Source: Pseudomonadota bacterium (GTDB lineage: Bacteria; Pseudomonadota; Gammaproteobacteria; Burkholderiales; Burkholderiaceae_C). From it: a stretch of 64,000 bases of DNA. Where the stretch lies: contig JAZJYR010000024.1 of assembly GCA_040390295.1 (NCBI GenBank), positions 14,195 through 78,194 of the forward strand. Reading direction: 5' to 3'. How positions within the stretch are numbered: position 1 is the stretch's first letter; every line of letters begins with the position of its first letter. The notes under the pieces are model-generated. The model was not told the DNA's origin and searched no databases. It worked only from the letters and a program-made list of their open reading frames with translations. Of the stretch, positions 28,015 to 43,698 are shown in pieces. Made by a program: the position numbers and the translations under genes.

Positions 28015-28026
28015 GAACCAATTACC

Positions 28027-28461
28027 ATGACACTGTCATTTCACGCCCGATCGATCGCGCTGCTGGGACTCTCCGCAGCGTTGCTGGGAGTTGGTCTGTA
28101 CATGGCAAACACGGCCCGCGAAGCACTGACGCGCATCGATGCCCAGGAAAAAAAGCTAGCATTGGCCAACAAGGAGCTTGGACAAAACCGTGCAAATGCC
28201 GACGCATATAGCTTGCTTATCGAGCGTATCGGCTGGCGCCAGGGACAGGATTTGCGTCATGAGCTGATTAACACGTCGGCCACCATTGCGGACAATGAGA
28301 TCGATCGGCTCAACGAGATTCTCAAAGCGAATCACGTTGGCAAGGGACATTTTTTTCTGCGCAGCTTGAGCATTGAGGCGGTTCGCGCAGGGCCTCAGGG
28401 CAAGCCCGCCGTGAAGGTGGCGATGCAGGGCGACAACATCCTGGTACTGGATCGCCCATGA
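28027..28461 (+). CDS. small bitopic assembly protein, PilO/MshJ-like by position
   Basis: N-terminal TM (IALLGLSAALLGVGLYM), a coiled coil, then a small alpha/beta part. Confidence 0.4.
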   Translation: MTLSFHARSIALLGLSAALLGVGLYMANTAREALTRIDAQEKKLALANKELGQNRANADAYSLLIERIGWRQGQDLRHELINTSATIADNEIDRLNEILKANHVGKGHFFLRSLSIEAVRAGPQGKPAVKVAMQGDNILVLDRP

Positions 28462-28886
28462 AGCACTTTCTGCCCTTCCTTCTGATTCCGTTCCTGGCGG
28501 CAGCTGGCTGGGGACTGGCCTCATATAGTCCGGAGCGTGAAGAAGCGTCCTTTCCACAAATTGCGGAAATTGAAGAACCGCCGTTGCTTGGGCAGCCACC
28601 AGCAAGGCCGCAAACCGATGGACCGGTACGGGTGCGCATGACTGCACTGCTGCCACCAGCCACAGTGGCAGCCAACCCTGAGAATCCCAGCCTGCGCCAG
28701 CCTGAACCCCGCGTATCAGCAATTCTGGTTGACGGCTCGCGCCGGGTTGCCCAAATTGACGGAATTGCGCTCGCTGTTGGCGAAAGTCGAGGTGTTTACA
28801 GGGTCGCCGTCATTGAATCAGAGCGGGTGCTTTTCGTGCAGACCGTACTAGGCACCAAGCGCTGGATTCAAGTGAATCCACAATAA
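28458..28886 (+). CDS. small periplasmic assembly protein, MshK/PilP-like
   Basis: Signal/TM segment, a Pro-rich linker, then ILVDGSRRVAQIDGIALAVGESRGVYRVAVIESERVLF. This pattern is typical of the small secretin-associated proteins. Confidence 0.45.
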   Translation: MKHFLPFLLIPFLAAAGWGLASYSPEREEASFPQIAEIEEPPLLGQPPARPQTDGPVRVRMTALLPPATVAANPENPSLRQPEPRVSAILVDGSRRVAQIDGIALAVGESRGVYRVAVIESERVLFVQTVLGTKRWIQVNPQ

Positions 28887-28888
28887 AA

Positions 28889-30364
28889 ATGGGCTATTGC
28901 GTGAAAAACTCCCGATATATCCCCCAAAAAATTGCATACGTATTCCCGTTGTGGATCGCAACGGTCTTCCTGGGTGCGTGCACACCCCTGGTCAAGACGC
29001 CGCCGGGATCTGAAGCCATTCCACCCACAGCCTACGCCCAGGTCAACCGGAAACTGAAGGAGGCGCAGGCGGCGCTGCCTGCAGCACCAGTCGCATTGCC
29101 GCCCGAGCAACGACTGCCCTCCTTTGACGGTAACGCCGACAAGGGCACGGGCCAGCCTGCGCTTTACTCCTTCAAGGCGCGCGAATTGCCGTTGCGTGAT
29201 GCCTTGGGGCTGCTGGCTCGCGCCCACGGACTGAACATCGTCGCCGACCCCGACATCACCGGCACGGTCACTGTGGACTTTCAGGATGTGCCCTTGTCGA
29301 AGGCTTTCGACATTTTGCTGTCCAGCATGGGTTATTCATGGGATGAGGAACAAGGCATCATTCGCGTCCGCTCGTCTATCACGCGTACTTTCGAAGTCGA
29401 CTACATCCGGGCCGCCCGCTCAACAGGCCCAGCGGGTGCCGCTGGCGCAGCCGGTGGCGGGAGCAGTACGTTCTGGGCCGAATTCGAAGCCGAGGTGCGA
29501 TCATTGCTATCGCCCAAGGGACGCCTGACAGTCAACAGGCTCACTGGAACGGTGATGCTGACCGATCTGCCTTCCAAGGTTGCAGGCGCCGCACGTTACA
29601 TCGAACTGATGCGCGAGGGGATGTACCGCCAGATCGATATTGAAGTGCGTATCGTCGAGGTAACCCTGAGCGACAATTTTGCACTGGGACTGGACTGGAG
29701 CCGGTTCAAAATCAATCCATTGCGCGGTTCCCTCGCGATCAACACAATCATCAACGCACCTCAGGCGACAAGCCGGTTACCCGGCACCCTTGCAGCCAGC
29801 TTTAGTGGCGACCGCTACGGCGCACTGATAGAAGCCATGCGCGAACAGGGCGATGTGAGGGTGGTATCCCAACCACGGATCCGGATCCTGAACAACCAGA
29901 CGGCTTCAGTGAAGGTTGGTACTGACGAAACTTTTTTCAGCCGTTCGACCAACCGCATCATTCAGGGCGGCGGCAACGTGCTGGACACCGTCAACGAACA
30001 GGGACTTAGTGTCAACTTTGGCGTCTCGCTGACAGTGACGCCGCAGATTTCAGCCGACGGCTGGGCCATGATCAACGTCGCCCCGACTGTCACCCGACTG
30101 GCGGGCATCACCACATCACCTTCAGGTCAGAGCAGCGCGCCAATTCTGGACGTCAGCCAGACCAGCACCATGATCCGGGTGCGGACCGGCGAACTGGTGA
30201 TGCTGGGCGGCCTGATTCAGGAGCAGACCAGCGACACGAACCGCCGTGTGCCTGGGCTGGGCGATCTGCCGGTTGTGGGCAACGCCTTCAAGAGTACCTA
30301 CCAGGCGGGCCTGCGCAAGGAACTGGTGATCTTTCTGGTCCCCACAGTTCAGCCAGGCCAGTAA
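28889..30364 (+). CDS. mshL: lipoprotein secretin (MshL/PilQ/GspD family)
   Basis: Lipobox FLGAC. Secretin core VVSQPRIRILNNQTASVKVG...PGLGDLPVVGNAFKS...ELVIFLVPTV. Confidence 0.85.
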   Translation: MGYCVKNSRYIPQKIAYVFPLWIATVFLGACTPLVKTPPGSEAIPPTAYAQVNRKLKEAQAALPAAPVALPPEQRLPSFDGNADKGTGQPALYSFKARELPLRDALGLLARAHGLNIVADPDITGTVTVDFQDVPLSKAFDILLSSMGYSWDEEQGIIRVRSSITRTFEVDYIRAARSTGPAGAAGAAGGGSSTFWAEFEAEVRSLLSPKGRLTVNRLTGTVMLTDLPSKVAGAARYIELMREGMYRQIDIEVRIVEVTLSDNFALGLDWSRFKINPLRGSLAINTIINAPQATSRLPGTLAASFSGDRYGALIEAMREQGDVRVVSQPRIRILNNQTASVKVGTDETFFSRSTNRIIQGGGNVLDTVNEQGLSVNFGVSLTVTPQISADGWAMINVAPTVTRLAGITTSPSGQSSAPILDVSQTSTMIRVRTGELVMLGGLIQEQTSDTNRRVPGLGDLPVVGNAFKSTYQAGLRKELVIFLVPTVQPGQ

Positions 30365-30382
30365 ACCTTAGATTACCCACAC

Positions 30383-31213
30383 ATGCAAACCACAATGGCT
30401 CCGCGCTACCAGGCACTGGGATTTAACAACGTCCCGTTCTCGATCACGCCGGATACCTCTTTGTTTTTCGCGGGGAAACAGCATGTCATTGCATATAACC
30501 GTCTCCACCATGCCTGCATGAATGGCACCATGTCCGTCCTCTCAGGAGAGATCGGCCTTGGCAAGACGCTGATCCTGCGCTGCGTCATGCGCAGCTTGCC
30601 CGCGCATGTGCGGGTTGCCTACCTGATCAACCCTCTGATGGGGCTAGCCGACATGCTGCGGGAGATCTACTCGGAATTCGGCGGCCCGCCTGCCGAAAAG
30701 GAAAATCTGGTCACGCTGAACAGAGCACTGATCAAGCTGATTTTGGAGGGTGCCGCTCGCGGCGAACGCTTCGTCGTCATTGTCGACGAAGCCCAACGCC
30801 TTACAAGCGAGGCGCTGGAGTCGTTGCGTATGCTGTCCAATCTCGAAACCGAACGGGTCAAACTCATAAGCCTGGTGCTAGTCGGTCAGACTGAGCTCGA
30901 GACAACGCTCAAGCTGCGCGCCATGCGCCCGCTGCGAGAACGCATTGGCGTATGGCTGGTGCTGGCGCCCCTGAGCAGGGACGAATGCGCCGCTTACGTG
31001 CGACACCGCTTGGCCTGTACACACAGCAGCGGGGACTTCAGCTTCAGTCCGGCAGCGCTGTGGTGGCTGCAATACAAAACCCGCGGGGTCCCACGGCGTA
31101 TTAACCTGGCATGCGAACGGGCTGTGTTGTTAGCACACACACACCGCACGCGCCGTGTGAGCCTGGACCTCATCAGGCAGGCCTGCAATGAATTTTCAAA
31201 GTTCTGGCAATGA
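30383..31213 (+). CDS. ExeA/MshM-like AAA ATPase
   Basis: Walker A GEIGLGKTL, Walker B VVIVDEAQ, and SLRMLSNLE...LVGQTEL as in ExeA/MshM. Confidence 0.8.
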   Translation: MQTTMAPRYQALGFNNVPFSITPDTSLFFAGKQHVIAYNRLHHACMNGTMSVLSGEIGLGKTLILRCVMRSLPAHVRVAYLINPLMGLADMLREIYSEFGGPPAEKENLVTLNRALIKLILEGAARGERFVVIVDEAQRLTSEALESLRMLSNLETERVKLISLVLVGQTELETTLKLRAMRPLRERIGVWLVLAPLSRDECAAYVRHRLACTHSSGDFSFSPAALWWLQYKTRGVPRRINLACERAVLLAHTHRTRRVSLDLIRQACNEFSKFWQ

Positions 31214-32649
31214 GCGCAATCGAACAAGCGCTGCGTCAGATTGATCTGCAACGCGAGAGCAAGCCCGCTGCGGCCGGGATTCATCCACGCCAGGGAAATC
31301 ACATGCTCATTGACTCTCCGGGCGTGGCGGCAGCCCCACCGGGCAAGCGATGGGGAATCTGGCTTCTATTGCTGGCGATATTGGGCGCGTTGCTGGCTTT
31401 CGGTCTACGGCTGGATCTTATTCAAATCGTGATGAAGCCTGCTGCGAGACCCGCCGCTACCACAGGCAAGCTGATCACGCCAACAGCGACAGTTTTCCCA
31501 CCCTTTCAGCCCGACACCTCGAACACGGCGCAGGCCCAAGCCAGCGCTGTACTACCAAAGGCGGACTGGATGGCTCAGGCGTCTCGCGCTTGGGACGGCG
31601 GGGCATGGGACTATGCGGCGCGTCTCTGGTTAGAGGGCCTGCGCCGCACAGCGCCGTCAACACTGGCGTTGCAGCTTGCCGACCTTCAGACTCTTGAGCA
31701 GACGCAGCGGATGTACCAGACATGGTCACGTGACTGGCCGTTGGTGATCCTGGCACAAAATTCTCCGGCAGGACCGCGCTGGATGGTGCTGGTGCTGCCG
31801 GAAGCGGCCGATGTAGGTGCGGTGCAGCAGCGCCTCGCCCGGGTGCTTGGCCAGCCGGTGGCGTGGGCCAGCGTGATGCAGTGGGTGGCGACGGCCGAAC
31901 TGGGGCCCTCGATGACGGTAACGCCACCAGCTACGGCACTCATTACACAGCCCTCACCCACAGCGCCCACGACACAACCAACGGCCGCCGCCCCCGACGT
32001 TCCTGCGCAGAAAGATGCCAAACCAGATAGGACTCGGCAGGCGTCGAGCCCATCGCCTCTACCAGCAGCGTCCAAGATCAGCGCCACAGTGCCGCGAGGA
32101 GAATCGGTCGAGCCTCCGCAGGTGAACAGGTCCAATGGCGCAGCCGTGACTGACCAGGCACGCGCGGCTGTGGCGTCCAAAGCCATTGATGTGAATTTCT
32201 CTGCTGCAGAGCTACTACTGGCAAGGGGAGAGTTCGATAAGGCGTTCACCGCTGTCGAGCAGTTAGAGGGCTACATGGGCTCGAACTGGCGTACGCGCTA
32301 CCTTGCAGGCGTTGCTCTGTCAGGCCTGGGACGCTGGAAAGAAGCAGTGCCAGCATTGACCAGCGCAAGTCAGAAGAACCCCGATCACGCAAGAGCGTCG
32401 CTGTACCTTGCGGTGGCGTTGCAGGAGTCGGGCGACCATACGGGCGCCATCGACACCCTTGTCAAAGCGACAGCAAGCCACCCCGAAATGCCGGAACTCT
32501 GGCTTAACCAGGGCCATTCACTACAGGCACTTGGCCGGACCGAAGAGGCCACCCAGGCCTACAGGCGCTTCCTCAATCTCAGCGCCAATCGCGGCGATCT
32601 GAACCAGCAGCGCAGTTGGGTCGAAAAGCGCCTGCAGAAGGCAGACTGA
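31210..32649 (+). CDS. MshN-like bitopic protein with C-terminal TPR repeats
   Basis: One TM (WGIWLLLLAILGALLAFGL), a Pro/Thr/Ala-rich linker, and TPR-like helices at the C-terminus. It follows the ExeA-like ATPase, as in msh loci. Confidence 0.6.
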   Translation: MSAIEQALRQIDLQRESKPAAAGIHPRQGNHMLIDSPGVAAAPPGKRWGIWLLLLAILGALLAFGLRLDLIQIVMKPAARPAATTGKLITPTATVFPPFQPDTSNTAQAQASAVLPKADWMAQASRAWDGGAWDYAARLWLEGLRRTAPSTLALQLADLQTLEQTQRMYQTWSRDWPLVILAQNSPAGPRWMVLVLPEAADVGAVQQRLARVLGQPVAWASVMQWVATAELGPSMTVTPPATALITQPSPTAPTTQPTAAAPDVPAQKDAKPDRTRQASSPSPLPAASKISATVPRGESVEPPQVNRSNGAAVTDQARAAVASKAIDVNFSAAELLLARGEFDKAFTAVEQLEGYMGSNWRTRYLAGVALSGLGRWKEAVPALTSASQKNPDHARASLYLAVALQESGDHTGAIDTLVKATASHPEMPELWLNQGHSLQALGRTEEATQAYRRFLNLSANRGDLNQQRSWVEKRLQKAD

Positions 32650-33437
32650 TGTCAGCGCCCACCCGTTCCAGATCAAAAGGTCCTGGATACGCACAGCAGC
32701 GTTGCAGCCAAAACGGCTTCTCGTTGATCGAGATTGCCATGGCGCTTGCATTGATGGGCGTATTGGTCAGCATGACCCTGAAATCCCAGGAGTTGCTGGA
32801 ACAATACCGCGAAAATCAGTTTGTGGCTCAGGTGCAGACGCTGATAGCCAACGTCCGCGCCCACCGCAGTTCACTCGGCCGATGGCCGGGCGACTGCAAC
32901 CGGGACGGCTTGGTGGACAACACTTTCACGACTTTGACTACTGAACCCGGCATGGATCTGGAATATGTCGTGCCGCAATCGTTCACCGCAGCAGCCGGTT
33001 CAGCCGCGACCTATGCCGTGGGGAACGTATGCCCGCTGAGCACGTTACTGCCTTTTGAGAACGTCAACGTTCCGTTCAACGAACTCAAGCTCGCGGGCCT
33101 AGCCCCACTTGGCGAACCTAACCGCAAATCGGCCAACCACGGCTTGACCGGATTTGCCTACGTGGGCACATTTGAGACGACCGCTTCCTCCGCCACGATT
33201 GAGCAGAGGTTCAATGCAGTATTGCTCACTGACGTCCCCAAACAGGCGGCAAGACGGCTGGCCAACGCCATCGACGGGCACGACGGCACCGCCGCCAACA
33301 TGGGCAGGGTGCGCCGCGTCAACAGCGACCTGCATACCTTCGCAAAGCTATGGACCCCTGTCGACGAAAGCCAGACGGGTCGCATCAATGTGGTCGTTTT
33401 TTTTGACCGCATTCCTACGAGCATGGTTCTCCTGTAA
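32649..33437 (+). CDS. second type IV pilin-like protein, paralog of 21090-21920, with a 23-aa leader
   Basis: ...CSQNG/FSLIEIAMALALMGVLV. It shares GDCNxDG, NELKLAG, ARRxAxAIxGxD and the VVxFFDRIP end with the first pilin. The ATG overlaps the mshN-like stop (TGATG), and the ORF is open from 32616. Confidence 0.8.
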   Translation: MSAPTRSRSKGPGYAQQRCSQNGFSLIEIAMALALMGVLVSMTLKSQELLEQYRENQFVAQVQTLIANVRAHRSSLGRWPGDCNRDGLVDNTFTTLTTEPGMDLEYVVPQSFTAAAGSAATYAVGNVCPLSTLLPFENVNVPFNELKLAGLAPLGEPNRKSANHGLTGFAYVGTFETTASSATIEQRFNAVLLTDVPKQAARRLANAIDGHDGTAANMGRVRRVNSDLHTFAKLWTPVDESQTGRINVVVFFDRIPTSMVLL

Positions 33438-33996
33438 TCCAAACAGAAGCTTTCCAGGGATGTTGAGCTTCGAAGCAGCGGCATAGCTGACTGGGCTGCT
33501 GCCGGTTCCGTGGACACCGACCTAAACTTTTTGAGCTTTCTCAAACTCTATAGGACTGACTGTTGATTTCCATCCAATCTTGACCCCGGTAAGATGGATC
33601 TAAAAATCGGTATCCCGGTATGCATACTAGGTAAAGCTACCGACATTTACCCTGATTGCAGAGCATGAACTAAGGACCCAAGGATCCGGCAGCTTGCGTT
33701 GACTGCTACAACGAAGGAGTCAGACGCAATAGAGATGTCCTCACTGACTTACTCGATGAGCTATTGGCCTTGGCTGGCCGCCTGGGAAAAGCCAAAGATG
33801 TGAAGCGGTATCACTCGCTATTGCTGCTCACGGGTGTTACTGTGTGGGATGACAAAGAAGGGTCGATGGACGCTCACTTTGAACAGAAATTCCCAGCAGC
33901 ACTGCGCTACCCAACCAATGACTATCTCAAGCATGCGTCAAAAAATGCGGATGTGCGAATCGCTCCAAAACCCTAAGCTGCTCGGTGAGCACCGGG

Positions 33997-34971
33997 TCAC
34001 CCTAGGCGCCATGCCCCTTGCGATCGCGGCCTGACGCTGGACACCAGGCGCCCCTCGCAGAGCAACTGTTCGACGGCATCGGCCTGGCGCTGATCGCGAC
34101 GGCGCTTGATCTGTTCGCGTGTATCCAGCTGGGCTAGCCACCGTTTAAAGTCCACGAAGATGCCGGGGTCCACCGTGCGCATCCGCGCCATGGAGCCATC
34201 GCCGCCGATGACCACCTGCTCGTAAGCCTTTGAGTTCAGGAATTCCTGGGCGTTTTCTGCTGGCACCGGTAGTACATCTCCTTCCTTGCCCGATATGGAG
34301 TCTGCCACCTTGTCGTCTGGCCCCCTTCGTCTCAGGAAGTCGACGGCGAAGCCTTCGGCATTCACAGCCGATTCCTTCTGATCCTCCATGCGTTCGAACG
34401 AAGTGTCAACGAGCTGCAGCAGCTGAAGCATGGTAAGCCCGGCGGCGTCTAGATTGGCAACTAGCCTGATGCGCTGTTGCACATCCCAGAGCAGATCCAC
34501 ATCACGAGTCGTCGTGCTCTCCGCATCGAATGCAACGCCTGCTGCGACCTCGTAGGCATAGAGCGCGTGCGTGCCGATCACGCGGTAGTAGCCGCCCAGA
34601 CCTTTGTTGTCGAGTTCGTTAAGGATCTGGATGACGATGGTAGGAACACGGGCGGTCCCCATCGACACGTTGCGGCCTCGCGCGACTTGCAAGTCTTTGG
34701 TCGATAGCTCGAGCATCTGATTGGCTGCGAGCTGCTCCGCCACATATTTGTTGTACAGGGCGACCCGCTCGTCGGTTTGGTCGCCGAGCGAGTGTTCTCG
34801 GCCGTCGCTTTGCGTTTTGATCAGCTGCAGGACGCCTCCGCGTTCCTGCCAGTTCATCTTCGCAGGGTAGCGGCTTTGCAGCGTCTGAGCCGCAGAGGCG
34901 TGCCGGTCGAAAGCGACCGCCGACTCGGCGAGCTGCTTGATTACCTCATCTTCGAGAAGGGCATACGTCAA
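33997..34971 (-). CDS. nucleotidyltransferase-fold protein (resembles what I recall as the GSU2403 family), catalytic dyad present
   Basis: VIGTHALYAYEVAAGVAFDAESTTTRDVDLLWD is a G[ST]...DxD minimal NTase motif. It has a ~130-aa helical N-terminal extension and a conserved C-terminal block YEQVVIGGDGSMARMRTVDP. Confidence 0.6.
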   Translation of the reverse strand: MTYALLEDEVIKQLAESAVAFDRHASAAQTLQSRYPAKMNWQERGGVLQLIKTQSDGREHSLGDQTDERVALYNKYVAEQLAANQMLELSTKDLQVARGRNVSMGTARVPTIVIQILNELDNKGLGGYYRVIGTHALYAYEVAAGVAFDAESTTTRDVDLLWDVQQRIRLVANLDAAGLTMLQLLQLVDTSFERMEDQKESAVNAEGFAVDFLRRRGPDDKVADSISGKEGDVLPVPAENAQEFLNSKAYEQVVIGGDGSMARMRTVDPGIFVDFKRWLAQLDTREQIKRRRDQRQADAVEQLLCEGRLVSSVRPRSQGAWRLG

Positions 34972-35039
34972 AGCAGAGTCTCCATTGAGTTTTCGAATAG
35001 CCGGCGACGGAGTGTTCCTGCTCGCGGGTCGGCAGGGCT

Positions 35040-36125
35040 TCAGACGCGATCGAGGGCAACCTCGCCAGCCGCGGCGAGGGCAAGGACTTCGTTGTTCAGG
35101 GCTTCGCTGGCGGCAGCGTCAAGCTTGGAGGTCACCATCGAGGATTCAAGCAATCCCTCAACAAGCCGGATTTTCTGCTCTGTCTGCTCGCTGTCCGCAC
35201 ACTTGCCCCTGCGCAGTTGAAGCGCGTGCTCCCAACTCACAAAGACTTGCGGATCGAGGGTACGCATCACGGCCATTTTCCCTGTCTTGCCCACGACCAC
35301 CTGCTCATAGGTGGGAGCCCGCACGAGCAGCTTGACCCAAGCGTCAGTATGCGCCGCATGCTGCGACGCGGCTGCGTTGACCCGCAAGGTCATCACCTTC
35401 CGCGCCTTCGCTGCGGCCAGGCCTTTCTCAGGAAACTTCCTAGTCTTGGCGCTTGCCTTAGTCTTGGCTGCAACCCTAGGCATTGCAGTTGCGAAGCGGA
35501 CGTTCAAATCCCACCACGGGGAATGAGGTGCCGCGCTTGCCTCGACCTCTGCGACTGCCCTCAGGGAATGCTTCAGCTGCCGCAGCAGATCTGTCGGCCC
35601 GTTCCTCGGGGATTGGACGAGAACGCGCAGCGCGTCGGGATGGCGCTCCAGCAGCGCACCCTTTTGGCCCTCCAACTTCACGCTGTCCAGCTTGACCCCG
35701 GACGATTGACTGTAGGCGTAGAGCGCCGGCCAGCCCAAGATGACGCTCTTGTCGGCGAGCCCGTGCTGCTCAAGTTGCGTTAGGACCTCGATGACCTCCG
35801 TGGGTACAGCGCCGGCCTGGACAGCCTTGTTCATGCGCTGGTTGATCTCGACGTTTGTCTTCAGGATCTCGAGACGAGCCTTCAGGCGGTGTTTCGTCGC
35901 CTGAAATTCGGCGCGCTCCGCCTCGGTTGCGGGCGACCTCTTGCCCTTGCGATGGATGACACCGCGCACTTTGTGTAGCAGGTACTCGTAGGTACCCACC
36001 TTCTTGAAAAACAGGCTTCCATCTAAGGCGTCTAGTTCGCGCCGCACGCGCACGTATTCCCGAAACAACCGTGTCGAGTCGATAGCTTGTCGGGCGGCAA
36101 GGTCTGTGATTCTTGGGAGCTCCAC
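35040..36125 (-). CDS. diverged paralog of the nucleotidyltransferase-fold protein lacking the acidic dyad
   Basis: It aligns with the downstream gene (VPTEVIEVLTQLEQHGL...ILGWPALYAY...YEQVVVGKTGKMAVMRTLDP), but TRDVDLL is replaced by GQKGALLERH. Confidence 0.55.
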   Translation of the reverse strand: MELPRITDLAARQAIDSTRLFREYVRVRRELDALDGSLFFKKVGTYEYLLHKVRGVIHRKGKRSPATEAERAEFQATKHRLKARLEILKTNVEINQRMNKAVQAGAVPTEVIEVLTQLEQHGLADKSVILGWPALYAYSQSSGVKLDSVKLEGQKGALLERHPDALRVLVQSPRNGPTDLLRQLKHSLRAVAEVEASAAPHSPWWDLNVRFATAMPRVAAKTKASAKTRKFPEKGLAAAKARKVMTLRVNAAASQHAAHTDAWVKLLVRAPTYEQVVVGKTGKMAVMRTLDPQVFVSWEHALQLRRGKCADSEQTEQKIRLVEGLLESSMVTSKLDAAASEALNNEVLALAAAGEVALDRV

Positions 36126-36169
36126 TTGCTCCTACTCCTAAAACTTCTAAAAAATAGGGGTAAATTACA

Positions 36170-36197
36170 TTAAATCAATGACTTAAGATTGATTTAA
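36170..36197. promoter_or_regulatory. perfect 10-bp inverted repeat upstream of the nucleotidyltransferase pair
   Basis: TTAAATCAAT-gacttaag-ATTGATTTAA lies 45-72 nt upstream of the start at 36125, in an AT-rich stretch. Confidence 0.4.
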
Positions 36198-36412
36198 GAG
36201 ATATTCTAGGGCTGCACGAGGCTTAGGAATACTCAGATTTACTCCAATTTTACAGATTTTCCTAGATTAGGTGCAACCAGGGTCTAGTAACGCCAGCAAG
36301 AGCGGCGATACGGGGCAACGATGCGGATACGAGCCACGGCGGCGGCAGGGGAGCAATTCGAACATTGGCTGAGCCTGCAATGGGCCAGAATCAGAAATAA
36401 GATGCGATCTAG

Positions 36413-37437
36413 ATGTAGTTTCCCAAGAGGTTGTTCACCCGAGGTGAAGGAAGATGGAGGTTCTGACATCCCAACTTCTTCAGGACTCCTCGGATGAACA
36501 TCCACAAGAATGCCTCAATGACGCCCAAAGGTCGAGCCCATTTGGTCAAAGAAATAGCGCGGATTGGTCTGAAGCCAGCGGCGGCAGCCGCTGGCTTGAG
36601 TCCTCGCACGGCCCGCAAGTGGCAGCAGCGCTATTCCCAGGAAGGCTGCGTCGGACTGTTTGACCGCAGTTACCGGCCTCTGGTCTGCCCCCAGCGCAGC
36701 TGCGCCAGCAAAATAGAGCGGGCCGTGCGCTTACGCAGGACTCAGCGCCTGACCTATGAACGCATTGCAGAGCGGGTGGGGCTGTCGCGCAGCGCTGTGG
36801 CACGGGCCTGTAAGGCCGCCGGCGCAGCCAGTCTGCCCACCTTGCAGGATGCACCGCCCGTGGTGCGCTATGAGCGCGCCAGCCCCGGTGAGTTGCTGCA
36901 CCTGGACACCAAGAAGCTGCACCGCTTTGATCGGCCTGGCCACCGGGTGACGGGTGACCGCACCCAGAACACGCCCCGGGCGGGCTCACAAGCGCTGCAT
37001 GTGGCCATCGACGATCACTCAAGGGTGGGATTTAGCCTGCTGCTGCCAGATGAGACAGCGCGCTGTGCCTGCACTCACCTGCTGGCGGCGCTGCGGTTCT
37101 ACAAGGCCTTGGGCGTCAAAGTGACCAGCGTGATGACTGATAACGGCTTGGCTTACAAATCACGGCGCTTTGCCAAGCTACTGCGCCGCCTGAAGATCAG
37201 GCACATCCGCACCAGGCCCTACACACCACGCACCAATGGCAAGGCCGAGCGATTCATCCAAACTTTACTGCGGGAGTGGGCCTATGCCTTCGTCTATCCC
37301 AACTCAGACGCCCGCGCCGGCGAGCTGGCGCCCTGGATGCATCACTACAACTTCACCAGACCTCACTCAGCCGTCTCCCACCGCCCTCCAGCTTCTCGTC
37401 TCGGATTTGATGGGAACAACGTCGTGAGAAACTACAT
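36413..37437 (+). mobile_element. IS481-family insertion sequence flanked by duplicated CTAG
   Basis: IRs ATGTAGTTTCCCAAGAGGTTGTTC and GAACAACGTCGTGAGAAACTACAT. CTAG lies at 36409-36412 and at 37438-37441. Confidence 0.8.
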
Positions 37438-37441
37438 CTAG
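36494..37441 (+). CDS. IS481-family transposase
   Basis: N-terminal HTH (MTPKGRAHLVKE...), then DTKKL...HVAIDDHSR...MTDNGLAYKS...RPYTPRTNGKAERF (DDE/rve). Intact 315-aa ORF. Confidence 0.9.
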   Translation: MNIHKNASMTPKGRAHLVKEIARIGLKPAAAAAGLSPRTARKWQQRYSQEGCVGLFDRSYRPLVCPQRSCASKIERAVRLRRTQRLTYERIAERVGLSRSAVARACKAAGAASLPTLQDAPPVVRYERASPGELLHLDTKKLHRFDRPGHRVTGDRTQNTPRAGSQALHVAIDDHSRVGFSLLLPDETARCACTHLLAALRFYKALGVKVTSVMTDNGLAYKSRRFAKLLRRLKIRHIRTRPYTPRTNGKAERFIQTLLREWAYAFVYPNSDARAGELAPWMHHYNFTRPHSAVSHRPPASRLGFDGNNVVRNYI

Positions 37442-37489: not shown

Positions 37490-37768
37490 TCAAAAAACTT
37501 TGAAAGGCTCAACGATGTCCTCAAATGTCTGCAGTTTGTGCGACTTGATCTCCAGATACAAGGGGTCTTGTTTGCCTTGATCGAAGCGCTGCGGATAGAC
37601 CAATAGATCACCAACGCACTGAAACTGCTTCAGCCAAGTGTCTGAATGCTTCACTTTTGCCATGGCTTTCGCAGGCAAATTGCTCGCCAGCGCCGGCTCT
37701 TGAACCGCTTGCTGCACGTATTGGCGAGCCACATCTATAGGCTTCATGCAACGTCTTCCTTCCGTCAT
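37490..37768 (-). CDS. hypothetical small protein
   Basis: 92-aa ORF in an AT-richer block with plausible composition. No recognisable motif. The start may be MKPID. Confidence 0.35.
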   Translation of the reverse strand: MTEGRRCMKPIDVARQYVQQAVQEPALASNLPAKAMAKVKHSDTWLKQFQCVGDLLVYPQRFDQGKQDPLYLEIKSHKLQTFEDIVEPFKVF

Positions 37769-37859
37769 TATTTTTTACTCCTGCGGTCGGACAATCCGCG
37801 TTGGCCAGCCGTTCACCTGCATCAAGGAGCCCTCCAAGCCATAAATTCGGTCCTTTCGT

Positions 37860-38078
37860 CTATGGTATTTCACATTGTTCTTTAACGAGATCCAAATACC
37901 GAACGTATCCGCCAGTTACTTCTCTCCGCCCTTCAATCATTTTTTCAACAGCTTCGGCGTAGGGCGTACCTTGGAGTCTCTTGTTCCATTCGTTGAGCTT
38001 TTTTTCGTGCTCAACTATCCAAATGTCAAAAAATGCAGCCAAGGTGCTCGCGTTCCCGCGTGTCACCAGATACATCAA
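37860..38078 (-). CDS. hypothetical small protein
   Basis: 72-aa ORF on the same strand as 37490-37768. No recognisable motif. Confidence 0.3.
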   Translation of the reverse strand: MMYLVTRGNASTLAAFFDIWIVEHEKKLNEWNKRLQGTPYAEAVEKMIEGRREVTGGYVRYLDLVKEQCEIP

Positions 38079-38263
38079 GTTGATTGAACCTTCTAAAGCA
38101 ATACGTCCCAGCGCCTAGCAACTCGCAGGCGAGCCAGTGGCAATCGCGGGATGATCCAGTTGATTCGCTTTCAGGTGGACCAATGACGGGCAAACTCGTA
38201 CTTAAAAGCACAGGGCGAGATAACAGAATAACAACAAACCTCGGTGCACCCGGAACATAAGAG

Positions 38264-38533
38264 GTGCTACTTCGTCCGATACGGACTGCGCGATTGGTAG
38301 CGATGAATAGCGAGAGCAGGGTCATTGAAGGCACTCGTACCGTTTCAGAATGGGCCATTTCAAAGTCAAAAGCGTACAGCTATCAGGTGCAGTGGATCAT
38401 CAGGCACGTAGGGGCACCTGCTTTAGTGGACGCGAAGCAACTTCGGAAGAGAAGTGCCGCCACCCTGAATAAGGCGTTGGCCAGTAGCTTTGATTCCGCC
38501 GATGATGCCCGAATTGACGAAGGGGCAATTTAG
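38264..38533 (+). CDS. hypothetical small protein
   Basis: 89-aa ORF with a probable start at MNSESR. No recognisable motif. Confidence 0.25.
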   Translation: MLLRPIRTARLVAMNSESRVIEGTRTVSEWAISKSKAYSYQVQWIIRHVGAPALVDAKQLRKRSAATLNKALASSFDSADDARIDEGAI

Positions 38534-38890
38534 TCCCAGTGTGACGGTCTTAGCCGGGGGCTTCTTAGACCCGGGTTTATAAGCAGCATTTTTCCTGCCG
38601 TGTGGTTCCAAAACTGAAGTTCGATCCAAGCCCTATCGGGCTAATCGTCAAGGCGTAGTGCCGTAGTGCCCAAAAAAGCACCAGCGAGCCGGATGGAGCA
38701 ACTCAAAGAAGACACGCCACGCCAGCTAATTTGAATCGTTGGCGATCGGCTGGTATTACTAATTATTTTTTTAACTTCACTGAGATTCTCCACTCAACAT
38801 TTGCGCTTGAATTTTTGAGGTCTTCTGGCAATCTTTCATTCCCAGTCAAGTTCTTCGAATTATCAAAATTGCAACCTCTACGAATTCAGA

Positions 38891-39363
38891 TGGAAAACTT
38901 AACCAACTCTTCACACAAAACCTACTCACTGAACCCATCACCTCCCCAAGGTGGTAACAACGAAGTCGGGGGCGTAATTAGGCTCCTACAGCACCTGTTC
39001 ATTCTGGTTTCGGCTGGCACTCTATTCTCCTTCGTGTTCTGGTTACTCCACAGCCGACAGTCTCAAGTAGTTTCCAGTCAACCCATTGGCCGTTTTGTAA
39101 GCATGAGCGGGCCCGGAGGGTTTCGAGGTAGTGTGGTGATCGAGACCGATTTGGGCTCCTATCCGATGAACAGTGGCGCAGTGATTAGCAAAGGCACTCC
39201 CCTAGTCCTGGAAAAACGCGCCTCCGGTGACGGATTCATCTGCGACGCCAACCACAACCTCTGCATCAAGACTTCCGGTCAGGAATTCAAGCAATCAGCA
39301 GACATTCCGATAGCCCCGAAACCGCTCGACCCCACCTTACCCTTACCAGGTGGCACACCATAA
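38891..39363 (+). CDS. hypothetical single-pass membrane protein
   Basis: MENLTNSS..., then a TM (LLQHLFILVSAGTLFSFVFWLL), then a ~100-aa probably beta-rich domain. The ORF is open from 38731. Confidence 0.4.
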
Positions 39364-39615
39364 TTTCTGCCGACATCGAACCTTTAACTCTCTCGGTTGT
39401 TTGGAACCAACGGGAATGAGCAAACTCGACCGCCAAACAACAAGTAAGCCATGTGATGAGCAGACCTAGTGGCGCAAGGTAAGCAGGCTCCGAGAAGCAT
39501 TGGATTAGTCGCTTGAATTTAATGCGGCATGTGCCATGCTTTGACGGCGTGATGATAAATCCGGCAAGAAATTTCAACATGCAGGGTTTAAAAAAATAAT
39601 CAATGGAGTTTCACA

Positions 39616-40035
39616 ATGCAACTATTTTCTTGGTCAGATTCCGAATCGCTTCAAAGTACAGCTGGAAATCACCCCCGAGTCGAAAAGCGCTATAGCTTGG
39701 ACAACGAGAATTTTGACTTCCACTCTCCCCTCGAAATCTTGTGCGCAATGGACGAGTACCTGCAGCTGGTGCCAGGCGCTAAATACTATTCCGCAGACTT
39801 TGCGCTTATCGAGCCTGAATGCTTTGACCAGGTCGATGAATTTCTCAATGGGCTTGAAATGAGGTTCTTCGAAAAGTTCGAGCATGCGAAGAACGTTTAC
39901 TTTAAGGATGCAGACACCACTGCAAAAACGGCACTAAAAATAGCCGTAGAAGCTTGGATCGCCGAATATATCTATGTAGAACCGCAATGGTGCATGGTGG
40001 ATCAGTCGGATTGCGTGACCATTGTGAACATCTAG
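39616..40035 (+). CDS. hypothetical acidic cytoplasmic protein (139 aa)
   Basis: Clean ORF, rich in D/E/F/Y. No recognisable motif. Confidence 0.45.
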   Translation: MQLFSWSDSESLQSTAGNHPRVEKRYSLDNENFDFHSPLEILCAMDEYLQLVPGAKYYSADFALIEPECFDQVDEFLNGLEMRFFEKFEHAKNVYFKDADTTAKTALKIAVEAWIAEYIYVEPQWCMVDQSDCVTIVNI

Positions 40036-40244
40036 CTTAGTGCTGAAGATTTTCAGTAGTCAAGATCTACTTCTACGAACAAAAAGCTTGTAAAGGTGCA
40101 ACGCTTTACAGGCTTATGCCAAAAATCGGCGGTCGATTCAAACTGCTGAAACAGAACGCAGAAAGAGCTGCTCAGGAAATTCGCCGAGAAATCGTTTTTT
40201 AAAAATCTTAAAGACAAGTCACTCAAATATCAGAAAGGCAATAA

Positions 40245-40445
40245 ATGCGTCTCTTAATTTCTTTATTTCTACCCTGGCTCACCTTCTTCACCATCGGGCG
40301 ACCATTTTCAGGATTGTTCTGCCTAGCGTTACAGCTCACACTCATCGGCTGGATTCCCGCGACTATCTGGGCTGTGTATGCATTGAGCCAGTACAAGACT
40401 GACAAAAAAATCGAGAAAGCTTTGGGGCAAAGGTCATCATCTTGA
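40245..40445 (+). CDS. YqaE/Pmp3-like small membrane protein
   Basis: LFLPWLTFFTIGRPFSGLFCLALQLTLIGWIPATIWAVYAL follows the LPPL...G...LTLLGxIPGxIxAxY pattern of two-TM Pmp3/YqaE proteins. Confidence 0.55.
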   Translation: MRLLISLFLPWLTFFTIGRPFSGLFCLALQLTLIGWIPATIWAVYALSQYKTDKKIEKALGQRSSS

Positions 40446-40502
40446 GCGACGCTTTCTGCGAATCCGATAGCGCATTCCCGTCAGCTGAACTGAAAGAACG
40501 CC

Positions 40503-40823
40503 ATGAACGAAGTCTATAGAAAGACAAAACGTGACGACAGAGAACAATGTATGAGATGTTGCAAAACCATGGTGCCACGCCTGCGCTTTTATCTTGGCGC
40601 GCCCTATGAGTCGTTTTGCCCATTCTGCGGTGGTCTCCATAAAGCGTTCACCGCGGAGTTGCCCAATACGCCCGGCATTTTCGAAGTTCTTGCTGCTTAC
40701 CTCTGTGGAGGCCTGGCGTTGGCGGTTGTGATTTGGGTACTTTTCATATCATTTCAACCGTTCTTTAAGCCTGTACAGCCAGATAATTCAGCCGCAAAAG
40801 CAGTTTTAAAGATCAAGAAATAG
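40503..40823 (+). CDS. hypothetical zinc-ribbon plus TM protein
   Basis: CMRCC...CPFCGG is a four-Cys ribbon, followed by the TM VLAAYLCGGLALAVVIWVLFISF. The hairpin AATGGCC/GGCCATT lies just downstream (~40843-40861). Confidence 0.45.
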   Translation: MNEVYRKTKRDDREQCMRCCKTMVPRLRFYLGAPYESFCPFCGGLHKAFTAELPNTPGIFEVLAAYLCGGLALAVVIWVLFISFQPFFKPVQPDNSAAKAVLKIKK

Positions 40824-41088
40824 AGCGCCGTTCGTGTTCCGAGAGAATGGCCTCGTCGGCCATTTAATGGGTTATCGGCCCGGTTTTTCGATGTCGCGTG
40901 AGATATTGCGTGCGACAACATGTGGGTCGACTACTGCTGCTTGGTCGTTAAATCCATACGCAGCCACATCGCAGCGCGCTTGACGCTACAGGTTTTTTTC
41001 TGGTAAGGAGCTTGTTCCGGGGCACTAGAGCCGGATAGGTTCCGATGAACCTGATCCGGCCATAGCCCCTCGCTTCGATTGTGGTCTT

Positions 41089-41355
41089 CTAGGCAATGCG
41101 TTGTGTGAATCGAGAAGGGATAAAGGTTTCAAAGTCACCCTGGTTCGCGTCCTCTCCTCGATAACTGAACACTAACGCGTCACCAGCCTCGCCCGCCCTC
41201 CCATTCAAAAAGCTCTTTAAGACCTTGAGTCTTGAACTCGGCGTTGTACCTTTCAAAAAACCCTTTGAAGTTTTCCAACCTCTGGGAAGCTGTTCGAACA
41301 CGAGCCGATTCACCGGCAATACCCCGTCAACATCTCCTGCAATCAGCTCAGTCAT
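41089..41355 (-). CDS. hypothetical protein downstream of the recombinase
   Basis: 88-aa ORF overlapping the recombinase stop by 8 nt. No motif. Confidence 0.35.
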   Translation of the reverse strand: MTELIAGDVDGVLPVNRLVFEQLPRGWKTSKGFLKGTTPSSRLKVLKSFLNGRAGEAGDALVFSYRGEDANQGDFETFIPSRFTQRIA

Positions 41356-42634
41356 GATTGCTCTTCGCTGGAGAGGTAGGCGTCATCGCCTCGTTCTGAG
41401 GGACAGTGAAAGGTTCGGAATCCTTTTGAGTGACAAGCCCAACCATTTTTTCTGGGGCGCTCGGTCCTTGAGCGCGACCAGCTAACAGAGCCTGGCGCTC
41501 CCGGGCCTTTTTCTGACGCGCGGCAGCTTGCGGCGTGGTGGAGCCGGCGTAGGCGCCAATAACGGATATGCGGCCATGACCCATGGCTTCGGTCGTTGCC
41601 TTGTAGGCCTGACGCTGTTTTACAGGGTCTGCGTGTTGGCCGTCACCGCCCCTGACCGTGGGCGTGATGTCATAGCCTTCCAGCATGGTGATGGCGAACC
41701 CGGCGCGCAGGCCGTGGCCGGTGATACCGAGGTCTTTTTGCGTGATACCGCAATGTTGCAAGACGCGGTCATACCTACTTGCGTTCTGCTTGAGAGTGAA
41801 ATGTGGTGGGCCGAAGCTATCCCGGTCACCGTAATTTCGCATCTCTTGGAGAATCGTGTACGCGGCCTGTTTGGCTACGTCATTGTCAGCAGCAATATTC
41901 ACCACACGCGGACGCTTGCCCTTTGTGCCGCGGATGATGGCGATGTCGACCCCGGCAACCCACTCGCTCCAATGCAATTTGGTCATGTCACGTTTGATCA
42001 GCCGGCCCTTTTTGTCGTATTGAGCTGGGTCTGCAGGAACGTGTACAGGCCTGATGTCGTCGAGCGGCTGGAACATCAGCGCCTCGTTCTTGCGATGCCC
42101 GAAGTTGTGTTGGCACCATAAGGCAAGTCCAACCCAGCGTTCCACTTTCATGACTTCGATGATCTTTTTGTCGATGTCGACCTTTGCGGCCTCCCACGAC
42201 TTGTCCCGCTCAGTAATGAGCGTACGCTTGCAGACGTCCTTGCCTAGGGCCTCATTGAAAACAAACACCAGATGCGCCTTCCCAATCCATCGCGCCAGAT
42301 GGCGGGTGTAGGTAGCGTAACCAGCTGCCATTGCCGGGCCAATCTCCCCGGCCTTGCTTTTGGCGCGAATGTGCCCTGCGATCGCTACAAAGTGACGTTC
42401 ATCCAGCGCATGAGGGTTGGACAGACCGCTGAAACCCAGTTTTTGACGGAGCCAGCCGAAAATCCGCTGCACGTTCTGGTTGGCTTCAACCTGGGTACGG
42501 TTGGACGTTTGCCGGGAAGGATCCCGCGCCTTGCTGACGCTTTTCTCGGCAACCAGTCTGGCCACCCGTGCACGCCAATTACCGGTCTGGTCACCCGTGA
42601 AGCTGCTGCGCCCGTTGAAGTTGAGTTTCTTCAT
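41348..42634 (-). CDS. tyrosine recombinase of the plasmid/phage Integrase_1 type
   Basis: ERDKSW...NFGHRKNEAL (Arg), RGTKGKRPRVVNI, HGLRAGFA (HxxR), and MGHGRISVIGAYAG (His...Tyr). Confidence 0.7.
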   Translation of the reverse strand: MKKLNFNGRSSFTGDQTGNWRARVARLVAEKSVSKARDPSRQTSNRTQVEANQNVQRIFGWLRQKLGFSGLSNPHALDERHFVAIAGHIRAKSKAGEIGPAMAAGYATYTRHLARWIGKAHLVFVFNEALGKDVCKRTLITERDKSWEAAKVDIDKKIIEVMKVERWVGLALWCQHNFGHRKNEALMFQPLDDIRPVHVPADPAQYDKKGRLIKRDMTKLHWSEWVAGVDIAIIRGTKGKRPRVVNIAADNDVAKQAAYTILQEMRNYGDRDSFGPPHFTLKQNASRYDRVLQHCGITQKDLGITGHGLRAGFAITMLEGYDITPTVRGGDGQHADPVKQRQAYKATTEAMGHGRISVIGAYAGSTTPQAAARQKKARERQALLAGRAQGPSAPEKMVGLVTQKDSEPFTVPQNEAMTPTSPAKSNHD

Positions 42635-43698
42635 GCGTCACCGCCTTCTTTTTGGTGCGGCGAAGCTACGGTTGCTTTGGGGAAGATCGTACGGTTGACG
42701 TACGCCATGCGCAGGGCGTACTTCTGGATGGCGGCGTCCAAATCAAGCCCGGTCCAGGCGAGGGTCTTGCGGTTGCGCGCCTGCATGAAGTCACGCACCT
42801 CGAGCATCAACTCGCTGTGATCTTGGATGTGCGGGATGTTTTTCTGCTGGTTACCCAAACCGACGCGGAGGTAGAGGTTTCCACCTTCGACTACGCCCCG
42901 CACGGCATCGAACTGAAACTGAAAAGCTATTTCTCGCGTGACCTTGATCTCGCGGGTGATTCGGTCCACCAGATAGTGAGTCAGGTCCGGCTTTGCACGG
43001 AGAAAGTTGCTTCGAGTGGCCACTTCATCACCACTGAGGACACGGTACCCTTGCAGTGTTTCGGCCTTCCTCTCAAAACCGGGCTCGTAATCTGTCAGCG
43101 GTCCGATCATCCCGTGCTTGCTCAATACCCGGGACCAGCCTCGCAGAACCGACCAGCGCACGTAGAGCGTGTTGGCTGCACAACCTTTTGTATTCCAGAT
43201 TTCCAGCAGCGCCTTGGCGTGGCGCAAACTAAATTTGGTGACGTCTTGAATGTCAAACCCACCGGCCTGCAGTTCCTTGTAAAAGGACGTAAGCAACACG
43301 ACGCGATTTTTGACGCTGGCGCGCGATGGCGTGCTGCCAATGAAGCGGTGATGGTTGGTCAAGGCTGTGCGAATCTGCTCGTCGTATGGGACAGACGCCG
43401 CAAAAGAAGGTTTCTCTGGCTCTTTTGTGTTGCGTGGGAAAGCATCGCTTCTCGTGCGAGACGGATGAGGGCGTGTACCTGCCTTATCGGGCGATTGAAC
43501 GGTGTAGGCAATGCCGCGTGGGTTCGATCCCCGCGACAAATCAAGAAAATTGGTTACTTCGGACATAGCTGCTCCTGCCAAAATCAGAGGGAACGCCCCC
43601 TTGTCGGCCATCGCAGCTATCTCTTTCGCACTTGTTGAGGTGTGTGCACCACCTGGCCGGAGCTCATGCATCAGGGAGGCCACCCTGATACCTGCCAA
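42631..43698 (-). CDS. paralogous Integrase_1-like protein lacking the catalytic C-terminal half
   Basis: It has the same N-terminal SAM-like module (FYKELQAGGFDIQDVTKFSLRHAKALLEIW...TLYVRWSVLRGW) and the first part of the catalytic domain. It ends before any HxxR...H...Y, and overlaps the next gene by 4 nt. Confidence 0.5.
   Translation of the reverse strand: MAGIRVASLMHELRPGGAHTSTSAKEIAAMADKGAFPLILAGAAMSEVTNFLDLSRGSNPRGIAYTVQSPDKAGTRPHPSRTRSDAFPRNTKEPEKPSFAASVPYDEQIRTALTNHHRFIGSTPSRASVKNRVVLLTSFYKELQAGGFDIQDVTKFSLRHAKALLEIWNTKGCAANTLYVRWSVLRGWSRVLSKHGMIGPLTDYEPGFERKAETLQGYRVLSGDEVATRSNFLRAKPDLTHYLVDRITREIKVTREIAFQFQFDAVRGVVEGGNLYLRVGLGNQQKNIPHIQDHSELMLEVRDFMQARNRKTLAWTGLDLDAAIQKYALRMAYVNRTIFPKATVASPHQKEGGDA

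Follow-up and report, generated by a model that had tools for sequence, protein, structure and literature searches.

Two adjacent minus-strand genes, here designated A and B, were examined in a 64,000 bp stretch of contig JAZJYR010000024.1 (GenBank assembly GCA_040390295.1; positions 14,195 to 78,194), referred to below as the window, and the proteins that they encode were found to be paralogs belonging to the GSU2403 family of nucleotidyltransferase (NTase) fold proteins. The A and B products share 25% amino acid (aa) sequence identity over ~228 residues (BLASTP, E=3e-16), and both exceed the gathering score of 26.3 bits for the Pfam family PF12281 (NTP_transf_8), B with 147.1 bits (E=9.8e-43) and A, in two stretches, with 40.5 bits (E=3.8e-10). 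Nothing besides PF12281 was detected in either protein in a Pfam search taken to E-values of up to 1. An earlier reading of the window, made from the letters alone (the sequence-only reading), had described the two genes as homologous along their length and had pointed to similar single proteins annotated as GSU2403 family members. Both points are borne out by these searches and the NTase assignment stands; the open reading frames (ORFs) lie on the minus strand where it had placed them, and all of the peptides that it had quoted (AVPTEVIEVLTQLEQHGL / RVPTIVIQILNELDNKGL, ALYAY in both proteins, and YEQVVVGKTGKMAVMRTLDP / YEQVVIGGDGSMARMRTVDP) were found. The locations of the genes and of the features described below are listed in Table 1.

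B has 605 homologs, many of them named 'GSU2403 family nucleotidyltransferase fold protein' by NCBI, and shares 37-57% identity with members of this family, while homologs of A make up only 33 clusters, which form a distinct subfamily. No solved structure related to A or B was found in the PDB using either single-sequence or profile searches. The sequence-only reading knew of no characterised tandem pair, and the searchable literature likewise describes neither the GSU2403 family nor an A-B pair; searches for GSU2403, PF12281 and NTP_transf_8 returned only a row in a Geobacter RNA-seq table (PMC7962754), and no established housekeeping role is known for the family. Together, the two genes make up a genuine module that is conserved and uncharacterised, and that has a clear evolutionary history.

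Table 1. Features of the A-B cassette and its surroundings, in window coordinates
Feature	Coordinates	Strand	Remarks
Mobile cassette (promoter/operator region, A and B)	34000-36386	-	2.39 kb; blastn block common to L015 and L016
Gene B	33997-34971	-	324 aa; TTG start; GSU2403-family nucleotidyltransferase with intact motifs
B C-terminal extension, nine codons (RSQGAWRLG)	33997-34026	-	TGA to CGA at ancestral stop codon
B basic C-terminal block K276-A297 (K276, R285, K289, R292-D293-x-x-Q296)	34081-34146	-	Identified by conservation; resembles DUF1814 motifs III and IV
B D211, presumed third catalytic carboxylate, in VDFLRR strand	34339-34341	-	Nearly invariant; absent from A family
B motifs I and II: G133-T134 (strand-helix turn), D157-V-D159 (next strand)	34495-34575	-	Invariant or nearly so in 107 family members
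A-B intergenic spacer	34972-35039	-	68 bp; GGAG 8 nt before TTG start of B
Gene A	35040-36125	-	361 aa; GTG start; catalytically dead GSU2403-family paralog
A residues 214-253, variable Lys/Ala-rich basic insertion	35367-35486	-	Predicted disordered (pLDDT <50)
A residues 106-213, degenerate NTase core	35487-35810	-	Motif I glycine and ALYAY helix kept; DxD and third Asp lost
A residues 1-105, family-specific, strongly basic N-terminal domain (helix, three strands, long helix)	35811-36125	-	Most conserved part of A
Promoter/operator region travelling with cassette	36126-36386	-	Inside block common to L015 and L016
TATTTT, -10-like hexamer	36151-36156	-	16 nt downstream of TTGATT; read directly from sequence
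Operator-like core TTTACCCC, direct, at -39	36157-36164	-	Between -35 and -10 boxes
Palindrome TTAAATCAAT-N8-ATTGATTTAA of the sequence-only reading	36170-36197	-	Perfect 10-bp arms
IHF-consensus site TAAGTCATTGATT, exact match to YAANNNNTTGATW	36173-36185	-	TTGATT (36173-36178) doubles as -35-like box
Operator-like core GGAGTAAA, inverted, at -120	36238-36245	-	Present at ~-120 in 8/12 pair loci
Weaker direct copy TTGCACC, at about -150	36270-36276	-	Full 8-mer here in L016, L072 and L077
MSHA-type pilus locus flanking cassette	26461-33437		Secretin, AAA_22 ATPase, TPR protein, prepilin-like gene, T2SSF, MshE-type ATPase
IS481-family transposase gene (LZ_Tnp_IS481, rve)	36494-37441	Opposite to cassette	~110 bp past cassette upstream edge

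The NTase signature that had been attributed to B is present. G133, T134, D157, D159 and D211 are kept in B and in all solitary members of the family (those encoded by a single gene) in multiple alignments, and in an alignment of 107 sequences comprising B and its solitary relatives these five residues together with K276, R285, K289, R292, D293 and Q296 are invariant or nearly so. An AlphaFold (AF2) model of B, with a predicted local distance difference test (pLDDT) score of 91.8 and a predicted template modelling (pTM) score of 0.88, places G133-T134 at a strand-helix turn, with the DVD motif on the strand that follows and D211 on a neighbouring one, and this modelled placement is the arrangement of a Pol-beta nucleotidyltransferase. 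A Foldseek search with the model returned weak matches only, the best of which were to NTase-fold proteins (5uvd, a Megavirus poly(A) synthase, and TglT/MenT3). Judged by its motifs, B is an active-looking nucleotidyltransferase. The orthologs of B in Polaromonas sp. AET17H-212 (locus L015) and in an Albidiferax metagenome-assembled genome (locus L016) end at ...VRP-TGA after 315 aa, and the window gene, which reads CGA at this position, encodes 324 aa.

By comparison, the catalytic apparatus is missing from A. The upstream copy reads QKGALLERH at the position of the DVD of B (alignment A1), as had been noted in the sequence-only reading, and proper alignment of A with its relatives restores no catalytic residues. 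In a 31-member alignment the A family has no conserved acidic residue at positions 144-270, and it also lacks the C-terminal K/R/RD block. As motif I glycine is the only one of the family-invariant catalytic residues that is retained, A represents a divergent inactive subfamily. In addition to this glycine, A retains residues 1-105, the ALYAY helix and the YEQVV-G-x-x-G-x-M-A-x-M-R-T-x-D-P hairpin. The AF2 model of A (pLDDT 76.6) has strands and helices in the same order as B, plus the disordered basic insertion, which differs in length among A orthologs; the middle segment of the window protein has a net charge of +11. No significant match for A was obtained with Foldseek against the PDB.

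The N-terminal domain of ~105 residues shows the same helix, three-strand, helix order in the models of A and B, and in a search of 1.84 billion representatives its occurrence was confined to the N-terminal end of members of the family. A YbaB/EbfC-like DNA-binding fold had been considered for this domain from its secondary-structure order, which is the same, and from weak Foldseek hits to 1pug and 1ybx, but was set aside as at most a candidate, as hhalign gave a probability of 0.08% and a profile of the domain matched nothing in Pfam or the PDB.

The distribution of the two genes was examined by scanning one genome per species, which gave 56 related loci, nearly all in Burkholderiales, and the family ORFs were classed using hidden Markov models (HMMs) built from the A and B alignments. 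Further contigs were then added to give 12 independent pair loci. In all 12, A is followed directly by B, and every other scanned locus carries a single gene. The distance between A and B in these loci ranges from 68 bp down to a 4-nt overlap, with overlaps of 1-4 nt in L012, L063/L073 and L075, and in the window no terminator-like site on the A/B strand was found within the spacer. The single operon proposed in the sequence-only reading is therefore a conserved arrangement. In a neighbour-joining tree of 71 proteins, the A (12), B (12) and solitary (47) proteins form three separate monophyletic groups, and the internal grouping of the A subtree matches that of the B subtree, indicating one duplication followed by joint descent.

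Comparison with the solitary members revealed a reciprocal pattern of divergence. In the N-terminal domain, A is on average 36% identical to solitary members and B 22%; the corresponding means for A and B are 24% and 50% in the core and 32% and 48% in the C-terminal part, and HMM scores agree with this pattern. Within the clades, identity in the N-terminal domain is 61% among A proteins and 37% among B proteins, with corresponding values of 42% and 68% in the core. The net charge of the N-terminal domain is +6.0 in solitary proteins, +9.7 in A (+10 in the window A) and -0.3 in B, and that of the C-terminal block is +4.3 in solitary proteins, -0.2 in A and +2.8 in B. The ratio of nonsynonymous to synonymous substitution rates (dN/dS), calculated for close orthologs, was 0.23-0.25 for A overall (N-terminal domain 0.10-0.20, core 0.22-0.29, insertion 0.4-0.7) and 0.11-0.15 for B overall (N-terminal domain 0.17-0.47, core 0.04-0.11). 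Hence, the dead copy has been retained under purifying selection, and each paralog is most constrained in the part that the other has let go. A single tandem duplication of a solitary gene, followed by subfunctionalisation into A and B, is very probably the origin of the pair.

In L015, which is from an isolate genome, 2 nt are missing from a G-run near codon 215 of the B gene (11700-11760), such that the reading frame is shifted beyond the third catalytic Asp, and the A gene is intact. This fits B being a dispensable or harmful partner.

The window sequence shares 88% nucleotide identity with L015 and L016, but only across positions 34000-36386, and the flanks of this shared block are unrelated in all three genomes. 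Because the identity is confined to this segment, the unit is a 2.39 kb cassette that includes ~260 bp upstream of A, and this cassette is self-contained and horizontally mobile. Terminal repeats were sought, and just a weak 9-10 nt resemblance was seen between the two ends, which was not treated as evidence. A conserved third gene accompanying the pair was ruled out, as the flanks differ in every pair locus.

Several pair loci are located close to genes of mobile elements or of defence. In L072 (11804-18539) the pair is found with a Dcm-HATPase_c_3-Z1-DUF4420 cluster inside an element encoding an integrase, ParB and a relaxase, and in L016 genes for Dcm and AIPR (7881-9494 and 14971-16740) lie beside the cassette; both clusters are of restriction/Abi type and linked to a cytosine methylase. 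One further locus each includes a Cap4-type nuclease together with a PIN-TPR-GreABC protein, DUF1173 together with an integrase fragment, and a HerA-like ATPase. The idea of the sequence-only reading that a neighbourhood survey might place the pair in defence islands holds for about half of the pair contexts, which are mobile or defence-related, but not for the rest, where the surrounding genes are ordinary metabolic ones.

Although the contexts of the 12 pair loci are unrelated, their upstream regions can be aligned. In the window, the last 150 nt upstream of A have a GC content of 33%, compared with ~60% in the genes, consistent with the AT-rich upstream region described previously. The pair loci share TAAG-N3-TTGATT at about -60, and an exact match to the consensus of integration host factor (IHF) is present at about -60 in 28 of 54 family loci. 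The TATTTT hexamer is conserved in L015, L016 and L017, with a similar sequence in L077; it was not called in a generic promoter scan. An operator-like 8-mer, TT[TG][AG]C[ACT]CC, is found at about -39 in nine of the 12 pair loci, and its positions are -39 (direct), -120 (inverted), -152 (direct) and sometimes -7 (inverted). This 8-mer is ~18-fold enriched upstream of the pairs, with 26 hits in 12 x 403 nt versus 17 in ~56 kb of surrounding sequence, and in L017 and L077 the two distal copies of the core form a perfect inverted repeat of 13-15 bp. These motifs are conserved and positionally fixed, and are candidate operators through which the cassette may be autoregulated.

A palindrome that the sequence-only reading had reported in this region does exist, but it is not the conserved regulatory feature. 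Its right arm is the conserved TTGATT box, and its left arm is not kept in L015, L016 or any other cassette and is therefore probably local. The palindrome was ruled out as an operator, as it is not conserved across orthologous cassettes.

A part for IHF has independent support from Geobacter sulfurreducens, where GSU2403 is up-regulated 2.76- and 3.30-fold in ihfA-1 and ihfB-2 mutants and is among 19 genes up-regulated in both ihf mutants (PMC7962754).

A core-like sequence, ATTTACCCTGATT, was also seen outside the cassette, at window positions 33645-33657 on the plus strand, ~340 bp past the B stop codon. It is identical to the -39 site at 11 of 13 positions, and lies in a spacer of 50% GC that includes a 70-aa ORF (33764-33976, plus strand) without a family match. 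This copy could be due to chance or could be the remnant of another promoter.

The solitary genes (L003, L006, L019-L064) are preceded by an inverted repeat, ATT[CG][AG]CCGT-N24-ACGG[YR][SG]AAT, which spans -40 to +2, is perfect (9/9) in 24 of 42 loci, and is related to but distinct from the motifs of the pair cassettes. The repeat is placed such that a TATAAAAT box coincides in part with its left arm and the ATG with its right arm, and in one case it was ATTGGCCGTAT-N20-ATACGGCCAAT. The arms covary between subfamilies (CACC/GGTG versus GGCC/GGCC). Given that no neighbouring gene is conserved and that the half-site varies from one protein subfamily to another, the repeat would most simply be read as a site bound by the product of the family gene itself, with the basic N-terminal domain as the candidate binding region. 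A conserved partner of the solitary members was sought among 145 neighbours representing 198 Pfam families and was ruled out, none recurring more than three times. The solitary genes are widespread in Burkholderiales chromosomes among ordinary genes, and 52 plasmids likewise carry solitary members, in settings such as next to ParB in a group of small unknown genes, or with an IS3 copy on either side.

B was compared with the DUF1814 toxins, namely AbiEii from Streptococcus agalactiae and MenT1-4/TglT from Mycobacterium tuberculosis (PMC3985639, PMC7450476, PMC11375011). Motifs I-IV of these toxins are hG[GS], DhD at x=15 with Arg, KLxAaxxR, and +DxxD (PMC3985639), whereas B has hGT, DVD at x=22, K276-R-W-L-A...R285 and R292-D293-x-x-Q296. 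The order of the motifs is alike and the K-to-D spacing is 17 in B versus 19 (K173..R180..D192), though the motif texts differ. Both have a Pol-beta-type core in which G[GS/T] is followed by DxD at a longer than usual spacing, and a C-terminal Lys/Arg motif followed by an R/K-D motif, and the TglT/MenT3 structures (6j7n, 6j7s) are among the best structural matches of B. The DUF1814 systems are also bicistronic, with a non-toxic partner encoded upstream (the role predicted for A), and are associated with mobile elements, and the abiE promoter has two inverted-repeat sites. However, neither A nor B has a sequence match to PF08843, motif IV is +DxxD in the toxins but RDxxQ in B, DUF1814 proteins lack the additional basic N-terminal domain, and the upstream partner is a dead PF12281 paralog rather than an AbiEi (COG5340) or MenA antitoxin. 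Nonetheless, the motif order, the K-to-D spacing and the fold hits suggest that B is distantly related to the DUF1814 toxins and may share a similar chemistry.

With toxin-antitoxin modules in general the pair shares architecture only, being bicistronic with the partner gene upstream, located in mobile DNA, and having a 68-bp gap without a terminator. The MntA-HepT (MNT-HEPN, type VII) system is also a two-gene mobile module that includes a minimal nucleotidyltransferase, but there the NTase is the antitoxin and its partner is a HEPN RNase, whereas here the NTase is paired with a paralog of the same fold. A search of A, B and the adjacent genes revealed no HEPN domain, and neither protein of the pair matched the PADLOC-DB 2.0 models, which include the CD-NTases of CBASS, at E-values of up to 1. 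The A-B pair is therefore not an MNT-HEPN module, a CBASS cyclase or any PADLOC system. In relation to ordinary members of the GSU2403/PF12281 family, the N-terminal domain, core and C-terminal hairpin are arranged alike, B holds all of the invariant residues, and the promoters are built on a similar plan, combining inverted-repeat motifs and an IHF-consensus site. The difference is that the ordinary members are single genes, while here the gene is duplicated and the functions of the domains are divided between A and B.

Arrangements of an enzyme with a pseudo-enzyme include the inactive and active domains of OAS2 and OAS3, and HipS and HipT of the HipBST system. In these, as in the pair, a dead copy is kept under selection beside the active copy, and it holds binding or regulatory functions of the kind predicted for A. 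However, the OAS domains are fused in one chain, and HipS/HipT arose from a split protein and not from a duplication. We know of no case in bacteria of a toxin-like enzyme with an NTase fold that is paired with its own dead paralog.

The model that we favour, though only tentatively and at somewhat less than an even chance, is that the cassette encodes a duplicated, autoregulated A:B heteromer with A as an antitoxin-like binding and regulatory subunit and B as a nucleotidyltransferase. The solitary ancestor would have combined the basic, family-specific N-terminal domain with a Pol-beta-type core and a basic C-terminal block like motifs III and IV of AbiEii/MenT, and may have been self-regulated and probably oligomeric, with the N-terminal domain binding nucleic acid and the DUF1814-like domain providing catalysis. 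Duplication would have been followed by reciprocal loss, A keeping the basic N-terminal domain and losing every catalytic motif, and B keeping the catalytic apparatus while its N-terminal domain lost charge and sequence constraint, such that an A:B heteromer would have replaced the ancestral homo-oligomer. A would then be a non-catalytic subunit that binds nucleic acid and regulates, encoded upstream like an antitoxin, and it would probably repress the promoter of its own cassette via the operator repeats, on DNA bent by IHF. B would be a nucleotidyltransferase that modifies a cellular nucleic acid, and by analogy with AbiEii/MenT its target may be an RNA 3' end. The module would thereby act as a toxin-antitoxin-like or abortive-infection-like accessory element, which is the most likely setting because of the gene order, the mobility, the apparently tight promoter and the distant likeness to AbiEii/MenT. 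Of the heteromeric enzyme, regulator/effector pair and toxin-antidote module that had been offered in the sequence-only reading, the options are narrowed by the evidence, without a decision among them. A wider proposition, which we consider doubtful, is that the GSU2403 family as a whole is an unrecognised class of self-regulating, mobile, DNA-binding nucleotidyltransferases, of which the pair is a toxin-antitoxin or abortive-infection type, with the dead paralog serving as antitoxin and as a repressor that replaces the oligomer partner, and with IHF-assisted operator looping in control of expression.

A number of observations count against the favoured model. The contact between A and B is deduced solely from their co-inheritance and from the ALYAY helix and G-x-M-A-x-M-R-T-x-D-P hairpin that are invariant in both, and an ancestral gene that is solitary is unusual for a toxin and contrary to the classical logic of a two-component toxin-antitoxin system. 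The N-terminal domain has no match in Pfam or the PDB and no detectable relative with a DNA-binding fold, and the Foldseek matches of B to TglT/MenT3 (6j7n, 6j7s) are weak (E=0.08, probability 0.75-0.89, TM 0.32-0.36). In cassettes of the type found in the window, the proximal right-arm motif has been largely replaced by the Shine-Dalgarno sequence and the operator is thus degenerate, and as the frameshift in the L015 B gene is in a G-run, it could be a homopolymer sequencing error. Searches of NCBIfam, PADLOC and PHROGs with A and B were empty, roughly every second pair locus has ordinary metabolic or housekeeping genes around it, and when evidence of expression was sought, only DNA metagenome runs were found to contain the window sequence. 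Some of these observations favour what we regard as the main rival, unlikely but possible, namely a benign obligate heteromeric enzyme in which A recognises the substrate and B performs catalysis, with one composite active site per heterodimer and no toxicity or conflict. The partition of identity, charge and dN/dS between the paralogs fits this explanation too, as do the solitary state and wide chromosomal distribution of the ancestral gene among ordinary genes, the metabolic neighbourhoods of half of the pairs, and the lack of a match in defence databases. However, the distribution is patchy, the cassette has been transferred as a discrete 2.39 kb unit, the association with integrases, insertion sequence (IS) elements, plasmids and genes of restriction or abortive-infection type is repeated, and the apparently tight promoter overlapping the start codon fits a product that has to be kept low.

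A pair dedicated to abortive infection in phage defence, in which A would sense a phage cue (a nucleic acid via its basic domains, or its own proteolysis) and release or activate B, leading to the shutdown of translation, is judged improbable. It draws on the contexts that adjoin AIPR, Dcm-Z1-DUF4420, Cap4-type nuclease and HerA-like genes, on the distant likeness of B to AbiEii, and on the basic, disordered and fast-evolving insertion of A, which is the kind of region that evolves under conflict, but there was no PADLOC match, defence genes were few and not enriched around 44 solitary relatives, and no phage-encoded relatives, whether by sequence or by fold, or counter-partners were seen. The view that A is a duplicate without a function of its own, on its way to becoming a pseudogene, and that B works alone as solitary members do, is close to refuted. 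The loss of all catalytic motifs and a variable central region with a disordered insertion are what it would predict, but intact A genes are present at each of the 12 loci, a set spanning 35-88% identity, and A forms a clade that is monophyletic and has co-diversified with B, is under purifying selection, most strongly in the N-terminal domain in the pairs compared, and in that domain is better conserved within its clade than B is. A is thus a maintained gene on the evidence of dN/dS and phylogeny, by which the pseudogene explanation was rejected, and B is not equivalent to a solitary member, as it has lost the basic N-terminal domain that every solitary member keeps. Quite unlikely, too, is the reading of the upstream inverted repeats as RNA hairpins, either a leader structure or the RNA substrate of the enzyme itself, rather than DNA operators. 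The covariation of the arms between subfamilies would suit a hairpin, as would the position of the right arm, adjacent to the start codon or overlapping it, from which translation could be gated by an RNA structure. However, the left arm overlaps a -10-like box and would lie upstream of the likely transcription start, the mismatches between the arms on the sense strand (A.C six times and G.U three times) show no wobble bias, and no Rfam family matches the repeats. A sense-strand hairpin is disfavoured on these grounds, and the position of the left arm and the types of mismatch favour a DNA operator.

PF12281 is a sizeable family that is annotated but wholly uncharacterised, with 605 homologs, members on 52 plasmids and others in the chromosomes of many Burkholderiales. 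The tandem pair amounts to a separation-of-function experiment made by evolution, as the basic N-terminal domain and the catalytic core are on separate proteins, and each function can therefore be tested alone more easily than in a solitary protein. The conserved promoter, with its IHF site and inverted repeats, could readily be used to test for autoregulation. Should A prove to neutralise or direct B, a pseudo-enzyme antidote mechanism would be added to the field of nucleotidyltransferase toxins (AbiEii, MenT), and if the pseudo-enzyme reading is true, the pair would represent a new type of toxin-antitoxin or abortive-infection system whose antidote is a copy of the toxin turned pseudo-enzyme. 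If the pair is instead a benign heteromeric enzyme, it would still be a clean bacterial example of subfunctionalisation into an enzyme and a pseudo-enzyme.

In the window, the pair is located between a pilus locus of the MSHA type and an IS481-family transposase gene, as had been described in the sequence-only reading. The region from 37500 to 41300 has a GC content of 44-53%, compared with ~60%, and encodes small orphan ORFs without Pfam or PADLOC matches; it is probably part of an integrated foreign element adjoining the cassette. Two overlapping minus-strand genes (coordinates 41348-42634 and 42631-43698) gave weak, sub-threshold hits to tyrosine recombinases (Integrase_1, E=0.001; Phage_int_SAM_2, E=5e-4), and a 204-aa ORF on the plus strand (45126-45740) matches actin-like MreB-like_C (PF21522) and ParM (E=8e-11), suggesting that a mobile element is present in this part of the window.

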